Counted from the first letter of the stretch, positions 1-17,079 are shown. The stretch: DNA of 17,079 nt from an uncultured Clostridia bacterium (GCA_947581755.1 CANPVN010000033.1:1-17079), one strand, 5' to 3'. Made by a program: numbers and translations. The notes: generated from the letters alone by a model not told the origin.

Positions 1-262
1 GACTGAAGGGATTGTTATAATAATCCGACCTTATAAAAAACTAACCGAAAAGTTTATCTTTTCGGTTAAAAAGGAGCAACGGAGCGTAAAAGACTCCTCT
101 TTTGAGTAAAGCGAAAAAGAGAGTCTCAAAGCGACTGTTGCGACGAGGTGACGCTGCACCCACAGTCGCGGTGGCGAGCCGCCACTGCCACAGTTCACGA
201 TTTACTTGATTACTAATTCCAATATTGTCTCCGCGTTCGCGGGATTATGCGAATAATTAATC
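1..262 (+). repeat. Mosaic intergenic repeat element, cut by the window edge. Module P palindrome gggatt..aatcc (3-26), H1 hairpin aaccgaaaag-tttat-cttttcggtt (27-85), H2 (86-146), X (147-243), second P-like palindrome gggattatgcgaataattaatcc (241-262).
   Basis: The same H1+H2 block recurs nearly identically at 9905-10030 (reverse complement) and 16460-16577. The X module recurs 8 more times. Matches were found by reading both strands. Confidence 0.8.
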
Positions 263-275
263 CGAACTTATATGA

Positions 276-309
276 AAATCGCTTCTGCCCAACAAGGCAA
301 AAGCGATTT
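276..309 (-). terminator. Hairpin (14-bp imperfect stem aaatcgcttctgcc/ggcaaaagcgattt, loop caacaa) just downstream of the tRNA-fMet gene. Possible tRNA 3' terminator or processing signal.
   Basis: Inverted repeat with one mismatch. On the minus strand it is followed by a weak U-rich tract (uuuucau). Confidence 0.35.
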
Positions 310-318
310 CTTTATAAA

Positions 319-394
319 TGGTTGCGGGGGTGGGATTTGAACCTCACGACCTCCGGGTTATGAGCCCGACGAGCTACCGCTGCTCTACCCCGCG
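319..394 (-). tRNA. Initiator tRNA-fMet, anticodon CAT, CCA encoded.
   Basis: Reverse complement is CGCGGGGTAGAGCAGCGGTAGCTCGTCGGGCTCATAACCCGGAGGTCGTGAGGTTCAAATCCCACCCCCGCAACCA. It has the C1xA72 mismatch and three G-C pairs closing the anticodon stem (GGG/CCC), both hallmarks of bacterial initiator tRNA. Acceptor, D and anticodon arms are canonical. The D-loop is short (7 nt) and the T-stem 5' strand has one extra A (GTGAGG vs CCCAC). Confidence 0.85.
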
Positions 395-400
395 TCATTG

Positions 401-1384
401 TTATGGAAGACTATTATAAACCACAAACTCGTGTTTGTCAAGCATATCTGAAGCGAAGAGGTGTTTTTTTTGCGAAATATTTGTCGAAAGAGTTGCTCTC
501 CAACCCGAGAAGGCGGCGGTGGAAATTGCCTCGGCGTCCTCGTCGGAGTCCGAGCCTTCGGGGTCGGCGGACGAAGCGCAGCCTGCGGCGACGAAGATTT
601 TCGAGGTATCGTCGTACTTCATCAACTTATCGGTGATATTCATAGTCCAATCGGCGAGGGGTTTTATGACGGCGGGGCGGTGGGTTTCGTCTCCGTAGAG
701 TTCGACGCGGACGTTCTGCATAAAGGAGAAGTTGAGCATAAAGCCGAAAGCCATCAACAAGACGACGGTATAGCCCACGGCTCGGGCGACTCCCATGAGA
801 CCGCCGAGGGGTCTGTCGATTATTGCGGGGAGTTTGATACTTTTGAGTACGAGTTGCAGCACGAAAGTAACTATTCTCAAAAGGATAAAGAGGAAGATGC
901 CGCTGAAAATTACCAAAATACTGCCCGAAATCAGAATGGAGAAGCCTTGCGCGAGGTTATCGAAAGAGAATGAGAGCACTTGGGGGTCGGCGAGGGGTTC
1001 TATCAACGAGCCTTTGAACAAGGACGCCAAAAAGCCCAACAAGAAACTCTTGTCGCTTATTGTTTTTATAATTGCGTCGGTGGGGTTTTGCGCGCCCGCC
1101 ACTGCGTCGGCGAGTTGCGTACGGCTTATATTTTTGAGTTCTTCGGGCATTGCGCCGTAGATTTTATTATAGAAAGAGAAGCCCTCTCCGCTGTCGAAGA
1201 AGAGTCCCTTTATAAATCCCCAATTACAGATCCAACCCGCAACGACTTTTGCGAGGACTATCGCGAGAACGAACGCGACGAACCAGCCGCAAAAGGAAGC
1301 GAGCGTCTTGAAAAAGCCTCTCAAGACTCCGATTATCGCAAACAAGACGATGAGGATGAGAAATCCCAAATCGAAAAGATTCAT
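401..1384 (-). CDS. CvpA-family (colicin V production-like) integral membrane protein with an acidic, Ser/Asp-rich C-terminal extension.
   Basis: 327-aa ORF. The N-terminus MNLFDLGFLILIVLFAIIGVLRGFFKTLASFCGWFVAFVLA resembles the CvpA N-terminal signature. It has about 4 hydrophobic helices. A strong RBS AAGGAGGA lies 8 nt upstream of the ATG at 1384. Confidence 0.6.
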   Translation of the reverse strand: MNLFDLGFLILIVLFAIIGVLRGFFKTLASFCGWFVAFVLAIVLAKVVAGWICNWGFIKGLFFDSGEGFSFYNKIYGAMPEELKNISRTQLADAVAGAQNPTDAIIKTISDKSFLLGFLASLFKGSLIEPLADPQVLSFSFDNLAQGFSILISGSILVIFSGIFLFILLRIVTFVLQLVLKSIKLPAIIDRPLGGLMGVARAVGYTVVLLMAFGFMLNFSFMQNVRVELYGDETHRPAVIKPLADWTMNITDKLMKYDDTSKIFVAAGCASSADPEGSDSDEDAEAISTAAFSGWRATLSTNISQKKHLFASDMLDKHEFVVYNSLP

Positions 1385-1487
1385 TGAATGAGTCCTCCTT
1401 ACAACGATTTTACACCATAGATTTTATCGCGGAAAGGGTGTTATGTCAACAAAAAAAGGCTTGAAAGGATTTTTGTTGCTCTCCGTT

Positions 1488-15915: not shown

Positions 15916-15924
15916 ATATAAAAA

Positions 15925-16215
15925 AATCCCTTCAGTCGTGCATAAGCACGACAGATTCCCTTGCTAAGGGAAGCCACGGGTAGTGCGAATCCCCGACTTT
16001 GTTTTTTTAGCCGCCCGTGGTTCCCGCACCCCTTTGACTCCTTTATAATTGGAAATATAGAAATGAAATTCTATTAAAAGTTTTCGTATTAAAATACCTG
16101 GTTCAATGTTACTTTTCATGCTCTGAAAAGTAACCAAAAGGGCAGTGTGACGCTGCACCCATAGTCGCGAGTTGCTTGATTTTTAACTCAAGCATATTTC
16201 CGCGTTCGCGGGACA
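15925..16215 (+). repeat. Repeat cluster: P remnant plus S hairpin gtcgtgc-ataa-gcacgac (15925-15961, identical to 9870-9898), a family-unrelated hairpin-rich segment (15962-16140), and X7 (16141-16212).
   Basis: Direct sequence identity with the other copies. The central segment has its own hairpins (ccacggg…cccgtgg; ttccctt-gcta-agggaa; gttacttttc-atgctct-gaaaagtaac). Confidence 0.7.
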
Positions 16216-16413
16216 GTGCGAATAACAAATCCCCTCAGTCTCGTCGCAACACGACATTATGAGTCGCTTTTGCCGACAAGCGTCAAAAGTCTCCTCTTTA
16301 GGTCGGTTGCTCCTCTTTCGTCAAAAAGGTAAACTTTTTGACGAGGTAAGAAAAAGGTTAGATTGATTGGTACCAGCTCCCCTTAGTGGCAAAGCCACCA
16401 AAGGGAGCCAAGG
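16216..16413 (+). repeat. Mosaic element: P (16207-16248), H' block (16232-16372), and A (16375-16413) in its variant form ttagtggcaaagccaccaaaggg.
   Basis: Near-identical to 10335-10526 except for a compensatory stem change in module A. Confidence 0.85.
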
Positions 16414-16439
16414 CATAAGGTTTGATTTTGCTCCCGAAG

Positions 16440-16640
16440 GGGCCATTATAATAAATCAACCTTATAAAAAAACTAACCGAAAAGTTTATCTTTTCGGTTA
16501 AGAGGAGCAACGGAGCATAAAAGATTCCTCTTTTGAGCGATAGCGAAAAAGAGAGTCTCAAAGCGACAGTTGCGACGATGCGATGGGGTTCCGAACCTCC
16601 ACGACGCTTTTAATGTCAAGGGCATTAATTATATAAATAA
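16440..16640 (+). repeat. Mosaic element: P (16440-16459), H1 (16460-16515), H2 (16516-16577), and T in reverse (16578-16640).
   Basis: H1+H2 match positions 27-146 of this window. T is the reverse complement of 10621-10670. Confidence 0.85.
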
Positions 16641-16854
16641 AACCTTATGTCTGTCTAGCTTTTGGGGTTCACTTCAGTTTGAGTTGTTTACAGATTGTAA
16701 TCAACTGCGGATTGCGTCGCAACGCCACCGCCCGATTACAGTCAAAAGTTTATTTATTAATAATATAAACGAGCCGAAAAAAAGAAGCAGTTTCGGGAAA
16801 ACAAATCGCCCACGGATATACAACACTCGCAGGCGATTTTTTTTATTAATTATT

Positions 16855-17023
16855 AAGGTTGGATTGTTTATAATCCCCTCAGGCACCCGAAGGGTGCCGG
16901 CTCCCCTTAGCGGCAAAGCCGCCAAAGGGAGCCAAGGAAATACGACTAATTCCTTGAACGCGGAAACCACGCTGTTGTTAAAAAAAACCTCTGCCGCGAC
17001 CATGGGTGCAGCGTCACGCTGCC
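16855..17023. repeat. Mosaic element: P (16857-16880), hairpin gcaccc-gaa-gggtgcc (16881-16897), A (16895-16932), and X8 in reverse (16952-17023).
   Basis: The modules are as elsewhere. X8 equals X5 except for the internal loop (ttgttaaaaaaaacc versus tgaattaaaagcaacc). Confidence 0.85.
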
Positions 17024-17079
17024 TCGACAACGTATTGCGAAGTTTATTCTATATAATAAAGAAACGAAGCGAAGAAACG

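Follow-up and report, generated by a model that had tools for sequence, protein, structure and literature searches.

The window, by which we mean the whole stretch of DNA analyzed here, is 17,079 nt from an uncultured Clostridia bacterium. Among its genes, which include rbr, an ATPase gene, an HTH gene and tRNA-fMet, lie five gene-free blocks totaling 4,028 nt (23.6% of the window). When the window was compared with itself (BLAST, E ≤ 1e-3), 2,944 nt (17.2%) proved to be repeated, all of it inside the five blocks and none in genes; the repeats cover 60–87% of each block. A previous sequence-only reading had taken about 23% of the window to be repeat and the repeats to fill every gap between transcription units. 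The gene-free extent stands, but the repeat share is only 17%, and the spacers at 1385–1487, 13103–13229 and 15413–15588 contain no module. Beside repeats, the blocks hold unique DNA and the usual promoters and terminators. The blocks have 68 perfect hairpins (stem ≥6, loop 3–12), or 16.9/kb versus 3.4/kb outside (about fivefold denser); shuffled blocks yielded 8.0 ± 2.8 such hairpins. The repeats are a real, non-coding, hairpin-forming DNA family. Independent ENA assemblies reproduce portions of blocks 2 and 3 at 99.5–100% identity, so these portions are not misassembled.

About a dozen short hairpin modules make up the repeats (Table 1). P is a self-complementary palindrome, CTGAGGGGATT-loop-AATCCCCTCAG (GGGGATT...AATCCCC); the window has 12 CTGAGGGGATT half-sites at ≤1 mismatch and about 14–16 P hairpins. 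There are nine H1-H2 units, five full copies of A, five of X, seven of T or its variant Tb, and eight S hairpins. H2 consists of a GGGT tag followed by GCAGCG-TCA-CGCTGC, that is, a 4-nt tag, a 6-bp stem and a 3-nt loop in 19 nt. Its relative H2b has stems of 6–10 bp, and the unpaired tag is GGCA, GCCC or GGGA. Both fit the description of REPs as short (20–40 nt), GC-rich imperfect palindromes. In the minus-strand unit at 148–263, a motif composed of CGCGACTGT, GGNN and a hairpin is duplicated in tandem.

Table 1. Repeat modules and composites in the window (coordinates from its first nucleotide)
Feature	Position	Strand	Modules and related copies
P-Tb-E-X copy 1, truncated by contig start	1–146	+	P 3–26, Tb hairpin 41–69, E 72–106, X 110–145; 85–91% to 10668–10812(−), 9914–10054(−), 16446–16578(+)
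P-H1-H2b-H2	148–263	−	H2 148–166 without distal arm; H2b 171–191, H1 195–235, P 240–263
Tandem array, 4.4 × 39-nt unit	8563–8734	+	First 16 nt of unit = A hairpin left arm; TRF score 323, 98% matches
A-fragment + Q, paralogue of 13719–13781	8719–8781	+	92% over 63 nt
282-nt composite A-W-T-Z-P-H1-H2	8751–9032	+	A 8759–8796, W 8802–8826, T 8826–8854, Z 8855–8933, P 8934–8963, H1 8965–9008, H2 9012–9031; 84.8% over 282 nt to 16420–16141
Solo P palindrome, between H2 and rbr terminator	9032–9059	.	
P'-Tb-E-X-S-P	9847–10058	−	P 9862–9882, S 9882–9899, X 9914–9944, E 9955–9986, Tb 9989–10017, P' 10023–10058; 95% over 147 nt to 16577–16432
V-S-P-H1-H2b	10094–10238	+	V 10094–10122, S 10127–10141, P 10145–10169, H1 10172–10215, H2b 10216–10238; H2b changed on both stem sides vs H2
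X-S-P (joined to E at another place)	10239–10351	+	X 10239–10286, S 10301–10319, P 10319–10351; 97% inverted match to 9898–9962
P-Z-T-W-A	10339–10527	+	Z 10351–10432, T 10435–10459, W 10459–10483, A 10489–10527; 96% to 16228–16415, 87% inverted to 8759–8945
H2-H1, joined to A side of 10339–10527 composite	10527–10595	−	Circular permutation of 282-nt composite
P-T-E-X-Y	10614–10812	−	Y 10619–10668, X 10669–10705, E 10709–10746, T 10747–10775, P 10786–10812; 92% over 155 nt to 16632–16480; T stem vs Tb: compensating changes, both arms
S + A hairpins	10810–10866	+	S 10810–10826, A 10828–10866
H1-H2	10892–10955	+	H2 end 10955 adjoins ATPase stop codon 10956–10958, 0-nt spacer
A-fragment + Q	13718–13781	+	
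V-S-P-H1-H2	13785–13929	+	V 13785–13816, S 13816–13832, P 13832–13860, H1 13863–13906, H2 13909–13929
S-P-H1-H2b	13976–14095	+	S 13976–13994, P 13994–14022, H1 14025–14068, H2b 14071–14095; 98.7% to 13832–13907; end 1 nt short of bidirectional terminator 14097–14139
Half P + S + further hairpin, directly past HTH gene stop	15919–15972	−	S 15935–15952, further hairpin 15956–15972; 87% to 9866–9912
282-nt composite A-W-T-Z-P-H1-H2, copy 2	16141–16420	−	H2 16142–16162, H1 16164–16207, P 16212–16238, Z 16238–16319, T 16318–16346, W 16346–16370, A 16376–16413
P'-Tb-E-X-Y	16432–16632	+	P' 16432–16467, Tb 16473–16501, E 16500–16537, X 16539–16577, Y 16578–16627; fold z −5.7
P-S-A-P''-H1-H2	16855–17022	+	P 16855–16882, S 16882–16898, A 16900–16937, P'' 16933–16956, H1 16956–17000, H2 17002–17022

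The stems covary, so that the hairpin form is kept while its sequence changes. Among eight S copies, whose flanks are conserved, there are six different stems, all of them perfect; every cell pairs, three of the four pairs are changed on both sides, and none of 500 shuffles equaled that. Between H2 and H2b, two of six pairs are changed on both sides, and T and Tb show compensating changes in both stem arms. Folding of the 282-nt composite gave z = −7.1 and −6.6, one value per strand. Since the composites fold equally on either strand, an RNA is not favored over a palindrome acting at the DNA level, and the mRNA-level role proposed earlier gains no support.

The modules are assembled into three composites of 70–200 nt, namely P-H1-H2, P-Z-T-W-A and P-T-E-X(-Y), which join at P in both orientations. 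P occurs at nearly every junction, and composite junctions carry it in all five blocks. As had been claimed from the sequence, the modules reappear in either orientation and in varied orders and contexts, and the 282-nt composite even has a circularly permuted copy. The resulting intergenic clusters, in which a palindrome alternates with a few other motifs in variable order and orientation, are mosaic clusters of the BIME/NIME type. Identity among copies ranges from 70 to 97%. Neighboring H2/H2b pairs are in tandem and share one orientation (148–191; also at loci L046, L083, L093 and L112). No inverted REPIN doublet was found among the H2 copies in the window, where the nearest inverted H2 pair is ∼290 nt apart.

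Most modules lie past the terminator of one gene and ahead of the promoter of the next. Own terminator hairpins stand between gene and repeats at rbr (∼9097–9133), the tRNA (∼270–312) and the upstream operon (∼14097–14139); thus, the terminator or insulator role once suggested for the repeats at operon boundaries is not needed. The 3′ end of the ATPase gene is the only gene end that a module abuts directly. That module, previously described as an X element 1 nt past a cadA-like stop, is in fact the H2 of an H1-H2 unit, at 0 nt (10955/10956). Likewise, copies were said to flank tRNA-fMet; they do so on one side (1–263), and the other side is the promoter of the next gene. In a related species (L122), the orthologous spacer, between rbr and g7752, is 242 nt long and module-free, versus 807 nt in the window. 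Gene order is the same there, but rbr is inverted relative to its neighbors; in the window, rbr is flanked by 187-nt inverted repeat arms. The repeat-free spacer of the relative fits the non-autonomous mobile lifestyle that had been suggested for these elements.

Homology searches assigned the repeats to no Rfam family. In an Rfam search of the window at gathering thresholds, only the tRNA passed, in keeping with the sequence-only reading, for which a match to a known RNA family would have counted as refutation; E-value mode gave only weak matches, each well under its family's gathering threshold. No transposase, integrase or reverse transcriptase was found among the scanned window ORFs of ≥80 aa, as had been stated. 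Block 3 matched no plasmid or phage, and the spurious ORF spanning block 4 matched only itself in a protein search. Limited comparison by eye of the copies of the 282-nt composite and of P-Z-T-W-A revealed no terminal inverted repeats beyond internal palindromes and no target-site duplications, which the earlier reading had proposed to look for; on that same comparison, we do not classify the elements as MITEs.

Among the modules tested, H2 alone is credibly found outside this organism. X had no match in JGI metagenomes, A and E had none in IMG/VR, and the IMG/VR matches of H1 (5) and of a relaxed P pattern (43) are about what chance and generic terminators would give. By comparison, the H2 19-mer was found in more than 115 GTDB genome tiles, the majority from Oscillospirales and others from Verrucomicrobiota, against a chance expectation (our own arithmetic) near 4 in 596 Gb, and in 33 IMG/VR viral contigs. 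Its hosts include many gut and rumen bacteria, and one MAG (CAMVQZ01) has at least eight tiles with it. Elsewhere H2 is attached to lineage-specific bodies, with tandem units and H2b as a recurring partner. H2 is a member of a wide hairpin family that spans Clostridia, Verrucomicrobiota and viral contigs. No Rfam match overlapped the 19-mer in 18 GTDB loci. The spread of H2 beyond this lineage is a point absent from the sequence-only reading.

It is useful to contrast these repeats with known systems. Like REP/BIME and REPIN-RAYT elements, they include imperfect palindromes that are short, GC-rich and tagged with four unpaired nucleotides, form mosaics with other conserved motifs in both orientations, and have stems that covary between subfamilies. 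REP sequences are normally lineage-specific, whereas the H2 19-mer is common to several phyla. P (GGGGATT...AATCCCC) and H2 do not appear to resemble the consensus sequences of E. coli PU and neisserial dRS3. The window modules are far more varied (about 12 types), lack inverted REPIN doublets, and come without a RAYT in the window ORFs. REPs and the window repeats alike are extragenic, mostly past genes, with no transposase in cis, and REP termini that abut or supply stop codons are documented (PMC3733652). The described REP superfamilies are defined by a conserved, unpaired GTAG or CGTC tetranucleotide at one end, in contrast to GGGT or GGCA here, and the 2013 REP survey contained no Clostridia, to which the present host belongs (Di Nocera 2013).

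Other systems share the organization. As in pneumococcal BOX elements, the repeats belong to a Gram-positive bacterium, are modular, non-coding and hairpin-forming, vary in module number and lack a transposase; the likeness is one of organization, and BOX has three modules in a fixed A-B(n)-C order, whereas order and orientation vary here and a palindrome marks the junctions. The early comparison with BOX- and BIME-type mosaics is apt: the region is non-coding, encodes no transposase in cis, and is built of short hairpin modules whose order and orientation are shuffled. In neisserial intergenic mosaic elements (NIMEs), dRS3 repeats flank RS segments, variable intergenic segments of 50–150 nt that form large, recombination-prone clusters. 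P plays the part of dRS3, a short inverted-repeat unit that punctuates arrays, although the segments between P copies are hairpin modules that are themselves repeated many times. We know of no phage or integrase that uses P. REPs near stop codons or between cistrons, such as malE-malF of E. coli, stabilize upstream mRNA segments; H2 elsewhere resembles them in position, as it either separates a stop codon from the start that follows or lies immediately past a stop. To our knowledge, exact abutment to tRNA/tmRNA CCA ends is not a described property of REPs. The dRS3 repeat is itself a CGTC-1 REP, in clusters (Di Nocera 2013).

On balance, the window repeats are probably a lineage-specific family of REP/BIME/NIME-like, non-autonomous and largely selfish DNA. 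The elements would be copied in trans by an enzyme whose gene lies at another place in the genome, and the modules would be dispersed through the host genome. The best candidate enzyme would be a recognizer of single-stranded hairpins, for instance a RAYT- or IS200-type Y1/HUH transposase; Group 1 RAYTs are present in Clostridia (PMC5581495). Elements would accumulate where insertion is harmless, past one terminator and before the next promoter. Recombination between palindromes would then shuffle and invert them: because P reads the same as its reverse complement, each pair of P copies forms a direct and an inverted repeat at once. Members of the H2 family, in one orientation, would land at, or be retained at, exact gene 3′ ends.

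A different explanation, which we consider somewhat unlikely, is that the functional form is RNA, for H2 if not for all of the elements. A co-transcribed hairpin at gene 3′ ends or between cistrons might shield upstream RNA from 3′ exonucleases or mark an endonuclease cut. In gene sense, the motif is a hairpin followed by ACC(C), which resembles an RNase P minihelix substrate; cleavage 5′ of G1 would give an upstream tRNA its exact mature CCA terminus. In other genomes H2 in gene sense starts exactly after tRNA/tmRNA CCA ends or at stop codons, as it does in the window at the ATPase stop. In the GCAGCGTGACGCTGCACCC orientation, a long ORF ends within −15 to +9 of the first base in 58 of 165 copies, versus 6 in the opposite orientation; the ends peak at +9 (the loop TGA; 20 copies), 0 (10) and +1 (7), the +9 class being inflated because any frame open into the hairpin in that register stops at TGA. 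Five of nine tRNA-proximal copies begin at the very first base past the CCA of a tRNA or tmRNA gene, and the other four lie 93–194 nt downstream of the nearest, co-oriented tRNA. Several lineages have the H2 19-mer followed by a variable terminator hairpin and T-run, and between two loci (L006 and L100) the 19-mer is unchanged while the adjacent terminators have diverged. On viral and Verrucomicrobiota contigs, H2 lies after a stop codon and ahead of the following ATG, 4–17 nt away. The A hairpin has G-U pairs on one strand only, as does the closing stem of H1; this also suggests RNA, but for H1 the strand so favored contradicts the gene-sense orientation. Within the window, only one of nine H2 copies abuts a gene, three oppose the flanking genes, and most lie past an intrinsic terminator; the equal folding of composites on both strands and the H2b variants, which terminate in TGCC, TCCC or GGGC, not ACC, likewise speak against this role.

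Alternatively, units of the H1-H2 type could be gene-stripped ends of IS200/IS605-family elements (PATE-like), in which TnpA would bind H2 as a subterminal hairpin and GGGT would serve as the guide tetranucleotide; insertion would be strand-specific at a short target, with no duplication. A conserved 4-nt tag 5′ of a short GC-rich hairpin agrees with this, as do the switch of tag with hairpin type (GGGT with GCAGCG-TCA, GGCA or GGGA with CGGCG-GCT), the sharp element end at the hairpin base, and the lack of terminal inverted repeats and target duplications in our limited comparison by eye. The flanks of H2 show a weak preference for C followed by purine (C at −2, 50%; purine at −1, 88%), but no single conserved target tetranucleotide. 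Moreover, a second, distinct end hairpin is not defined, and H2 stands in both orientations within the window (six and three). No transposase, neither tnpA nor tnpB, was found in the 1.17 Mb around the 165 H2 19-mer copies, which weighs against this origin and against the preferred reading alike; for Y1 enzymes, sought by tblastn with IS608 TnpA and E. coli RAYT queries, the negative is weak. We regard this origin as unlikely.

A purely local origin, in which segments of a few hundred bases were duplicated, inverted and expanded in tandem, one event after another, inside these 17 kb and no dispersed genomic family exists, is very unlikely: copies occupy five separate spacers whose intervening genes are intact, unrelated and never co-duplicated; identities of 70–97% indicate copies of different ages; the start of the contig falls within a composite and short-read contigs of other samples break inside modules (8572, 8788, 8858 and 9897), a pattern typical of repeats that have further copies in the genome; and H2 is demonstrably dispersed across many genomes. 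Local duplication does occur, as the tandem array and the P-H1-H2 tandem duplicate (13832–13907 and 13994–14069, 98.7%) attest, and the search results for X, A, E, H1, P and blocks 3 and 4 given above agree with a local origin.

Selfish palindromic DNA remains our preferred account of the mosaic. For H2, the 0-nt spacing to CCA ends and stop codons, together with cross-phylum identity, looks more like function or targeting than neutral junk. We tentatively raise the possibility, doubtful as it is, that H2, in gene sense GCAGCG-TGA-CGCTGC-ACCC, represents a cross-phylum “gene-end” element not described before. It would be preserved without change across Clostridia, Verrucomicrobiota, Nitrospinaceae and the viruses of these groups and placed to the single base after stop codons and tRNA/tmRNA CCA, and the mosaic in the window would be the debris of its expansion in one lineage. 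Such an element may reflect site-specific micro-transposition aimed at gene 3′ ends. Its conservation may instead reflect a signal for the processing or stability of RNA, such as a minihelix cut of the RNase P type. If H2 is cut in this way, mature CCA ends would be released and cistrons would be separated.

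The repeats of this window form a genuine family with solid statistical support, and the sequence-only reading described them well. The five blocks contain no genes and together cover 23.6% of the window (4,028 nt). Comparison of the window with itself by BLAST (E ≤ 1e-3) marked 2,944 nt as repeated, all of it within the blocks, where it makes up 60–87% of each, and none of it in genes. Perfect hairpins (stem ≥6, loop 3–12) number 68 in the blocks, a density of 16.9/kb versus 3.4/kb in the rest of the window, and shuffled blocks yield only 8.0 ± 2.8. Thus, the claim that these blocks are gene-free and built from repeats is borne out. 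No Pfam domains were found in ORFs within them, and besides repeats they contain unique DNA and ordinary promoters and terminators. The further claim that repeats fill every gap was wrong, since three spacers contain no module (see the table).

The window is a complete NCBI contig of 17,079 nt. It holds 11 protein genes judged credible, along with an initiator tRNA that shows the C1-A72 mismatch and has three G-C pairs in its anticodon stem. The proteins are a CvpA-like protein, an MMPL protein, a 698-aa protein, a flotillin/SPFH protein, a 204-aa protein, rubrerythrin (rbr), a P-type ATPase, ArsR, two secreted proteins, and an HTH protein. At 90% identity they are singletons or near-singletons (one to two members), and the nearest named flotillins, 74–76% identical, come from "Clostridia/Clostridiales bacterium" MAGs. 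A 73-aa ORF with a heavy-metal-associated domain (CANC motif) overlaps the start of the ATPase ORF in another frame, which points either to a frameshift or split in the cadA-like gene or to a separate small chaperone gene. A probable gene for a small hydrophobic protein of 58 aa (MFTLIAAAFSTLKGAAIALAAV...), shorter than the ORF-length cut-off applied, lies just before a bidirectional terminator.

Coordinates of features in the window
Feature	Position	Strand	Detail
Gene-free blocks 1–5	1–318, 8367–9173, 9726–10955, 13593–14101, 15916–17079		
Spacers containing no module	1385–1487, 13103–13229, 15413–15588		
Terminator hairpin	~270–312		adjoins tRNA
Terminator hairpin	~9097–9133		adjoins rbr
Terminator hairpin	~14097–14139		operon upstream of arsR; bidirectional
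39-nt tandem array	8563–8734		4.4 copies, 98% identity
282-nt unit	8751–9032, 16141–16420		85% identical
282-nt unit, permuted	10339–10595		P-Z-T-W-A, then H2-H1
Inverted arms around rbr	8759–10526		187 nt each
rbr	9174–9725		
Stops of ENA contigs	8572, 8788, 8858, 9897		8572: short-read contig L118, edge of tandem array
P-type ATPase ORF	10956–12923	−	
73-aa ORF	12881–13102	−	
207-aa "protein" P0130	13630–14253	+	
58-aa gene, probable	~14142–14318	−	
Unique 220-nt stretch	16633–16855		between two repeat composites
Promoter-like site	16657–16628	−	11/12 match
Hairpin with T-run	~16806–16848	+	

About a dozen modules were resolved by consensus searches and pairwise matches in the window. P is a palindrome consisting of CTGAGGGGATT, an AT-rich loop, and AATCCCCTCAG; all 12 half-sites found at ≤1 mismatch lie within blocks, and nearly every module junction carries a P. 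S is a hairpin of 6–8 bp with variable sequence, and in H1 a CGCGG...YCGCG stem closes a variable interior. H2 is GGGT plus GCAGCG-TCA-CGCTGC, and its variant H2b is GGCA or GCCC plus GYGGCG-GCT-CGCCRC. A is a 15-bp hairpin and T/Tb one of 11–12 bp; further modules are E, X, Y, Z, W, V, and Q. Modules are joined into the composites P-H1-H2 (nine copies), P-T-E-X(-Y) (four), and P-Z-T-W-A (three). A 282-nt unit, present twice, unites P-H1-H2 and P-Z-T-W-A on one common P, and its third copy is a circular permutation. Partners and orientations vary as well: X-S-P is joined to E at one site and to H2b at another, and A occurs in both orientations relative to the adjacent composite. The 39-nt tandem array has a strongly pyrimidine-rich strand, and its unit opens with the A hairpin's left arm.

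The sequence of the modules varies while the hairpin form is conserved. Eight S hairpins in conserved flanks have six different stems, with perfect pairing in all; three of four scored pairs are altered on both sides, a result matched by none of 500 shuffles. Between H2 and H2b, two of six stem pairs have changed on both sides, and T and Tb show compensating differences on both stem arms. The composites fold far better than shuffles and about equally well on the two strands (z = −7.1 and −6.6 for the 282-nt unit), and the preferred strand varies among smaller pieces. Given this near-equal folding of both strands, palindromes at the DNA level or hairpins in single-stranded DNA fit at least as well as RNA.

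The repeats also appear to drive rearrangements. L122, a Logan contig from a related species with a 93% identical flotillin, keeps the gene order rbr, g7752, SPFH, g4176, MMPL. Its spacer between rbr and the neighboring gene g7752 measures 242 nt without modules, versus 807 nt in the window, and rbr, within positions 1–720 of this contig, is flipped relative to the same neighbors. In the window, inverted arms formed by the P-Z-T-W-A composite, 87% complementary, enclose rbr together with its promoter and terminator. The inverted arms and the opposite orientation in L122 together make an inversion of rbr through recombination of repeat copies likely. No modules were found in two more distant relatives. 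Contigs from four other ENA samples match parts of the window at 99.5–100% identity and stop within modules, the behavior that repeats present in many copies should produce. The public record lists a 207-aa "protein," running across block 4, that is a translation of V-S-P-H1-H2 (twice) plus the antisense of a small gene. Since it reads through repeat modules and has no homologue but itself among 5.8 billion proteins, it is a spurious, repeat-caused gene call.

With respect to genes, the modules occupy the interval from a terminator to the next promoter. Strong promoter matches lie upstream of rbr, arsR, cvpA, and others. The general terminator or insulator role suggested by the sequence-only reading is not required, because rbr, the tRNA, and the operon upstream of arsR have terminators of their own and because the Tb hairpin, which with its seven T resembles a terminator, points in different directions among copies. 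The ATPase gene alone lacks its own terminator, and the module abutting it is the H2 hairpin with zero spacer, rather than an X ending 1 nt after the stop as had been described. Nor do repeats flank the tRNA-fMet; they lie on one side only. An sRNA gene was considered for Y-X-E-Tb, with a promoter-like site and a terminator-like Tb, and rejected because the second Y copy preserves neither. The unique stretch that includes this promoter-like site also contains a hairpin with a T-run.

The best-supported reading, which we hold with moderate confidence, is that the palindromic repeats form a REP/BIME/NIME-like family and are non-autonomous, largely selfish DNA. Such elements would accumulate in silent spacer DNA, would be copied by an enzyme encoded elsewhere, and would be reshuffled and inverted by recombination at palindromes. 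Because P is its own reverse complement, any P pair can both delete and invert. One empty orthologous site suggests mobility. Known REPs likewise abut or supply stop codons (PMC3733652), and group 1 RAYTs are present in Clostridia (PMC5581495). However, described REP superfamilies carry a GTAG or CGTC tag and this family carries neither; it also lacks the REPIN doublets of REPIN-RAYT systems, and no RAYT was found for it. It thus falls outside the described superfamilies and is a variant, not seen before, of a known kind of bacterial repeat. In Rfam the blocks have no credible match: searches of the window and 18 other loci (gathering) and of the blocks (E-value mode) returned only tRNAs and one unrelated riboswitch. 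Block 3 had no BLAST match among plasmids and phages, and an X 21-mer had none in JGI metagenomes, where the 28-nt H1-H2 junction occurred in four contigs with only ~30 nt in common. In IMG/VR, A and E gave no matches, and an H1 17-mer and a relaxed P pattern gave 5 and 43, about what chance and generic terminators would produce. None of the papers searched contained the hairpin sequence, and nothing relevant turned up in the literature on REP-like repeats in Ruminococcus or Clostridia.

H2 is the exception among the modules and the most interesting component, a cross-phylum 19-base hairpin at gene ends. In GTDB genomes, at least 115 tiles of 8 kb contain the 19-mer (H2 with its GGGT tag, GGGTGCAGCGTCACGCTGC), against ~4 matches that by our own arithmetic chance would give in 596 Gb. 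It is also present in 33 IMG/VR contigs, and no Rfam family overlaps it. Among the matches listed, ~95 tiles belong to Ruminococcus, Ruminiclostridium, Oscillospiraceae, Acutalibacteraceae, Christensenellaceae, and unnamed Clostridia, about a dozen to Verrucomicrobiota, and two to Nitrospinaceae. Similarity of these loci to the window is limited to ~19–30 nt. The 70–200 nt joined to the 19-mer are lineage-specific in sequence and follow a common plan, in which a closing stem leads through a short spacer (often CGCGAAYN) to GGGT and the hairpin. An H2b-type hairpin recurs beside it in the same orientation. In MAG CAMVQZ01 (SRR8387715_bin.100; loci L056, L075, L082, L084, and L086), a ~224-nt unit ending in the 19-mer is repeated head to tail, and several contigs start or stop in it; the unit includes a GCGCCGGATGCCGCG stretch and variant hairpins GGGT-CCAGCG-TCA-CGCTGG.

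For counts of positions at gene ends, the hairpin was taken in the orientation GCAGCGTGACGCTGCACCC. Among nine tRNA-proximal copies, five start on the base that immediately follows the CCA, in four cases of a tRNA gene (Arg, Trp, and two Gly) and in one of a tmRNA gene; the other four lie 93–194 nt downstream of the nearest, co-oriented tRNA. In raw open frames rather than curated genes, a long ORF ends within −15 to +9 of the first base at 58 of 165 copies, versus 6 in the opposite orientation, with peaks at +9 (the loop TGA, n = 20), 0 (n = 10), and +1 (TA|G, n = 7). The +9 class is in part unavoidable, since TGA stops every frame that enters the hairpin at this point; no such constraint applies to the 0 class, the +1 class, or the CCA cases. 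Read in frame, the hairpin is GCA GCG TGA, or Ala-Ala-stop, so that the proteins predicted from the 20 frames ending on the loop TGA would end in Ala-Ala. Contigs of viruses and Verrucomicrobiota often have the hairpin downstream of one stop codon and ahead of the next ATG, which follows 4–17 nt on. In the cultured strain Ruminococcus flavefaciens ATCC 19208, a TAA stop is immediately followed by the 19-mer (within NZ_KI912491.1:152001–160000). The flank shows a weak preference for C then purine. At L006, L019, and L037, three outside loci without an ARAGORN call, the 19-mer abuts lookalikes of tRNA/tmRNA 3′ halves (e.g., TGGTGGAGATGAGGGGAGTCGAACCCC, other strand), which may represent diverged tmRNAs or remnants of tRNAs. 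If H2, at least, acts as RNA, this would account for its orientation and for its placement to the single base at gene ends, though not for the layout of the window; we consider such a function rather unlikely.

An origin of the H1-H2 units from IS200/IS605-type elements is doubtful: tblastn with approximate query sequences found no Y1 transposase in 1.17 Mb around the 19-mer, and ORF clustering across the 115 loci found only ordinary recurrent gene families, such as ABC transporters. A purely local duplication is improbable; contig breaks and the presence of repeats in five separate spacers point to dispersal in the host genome.

Dense families of palindromic repeats have been studied in depth in Proteobacteria and in a few pathogens. 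In the uncultured Clostridia of gut and rumen, which dominate metagenomes, such families have, to our knowledge, hardly been described. The repeats described here break short-read assemblies, whose contigs end inside them, and yield spurious gene calls such as the 207-aa "protein." If H2 is targeted to gene ends, it points to an unknown enzyme of unusual specificity; if it is instead selected there, it would represent a widespread, uncharacterized RNA 3′-end signal.
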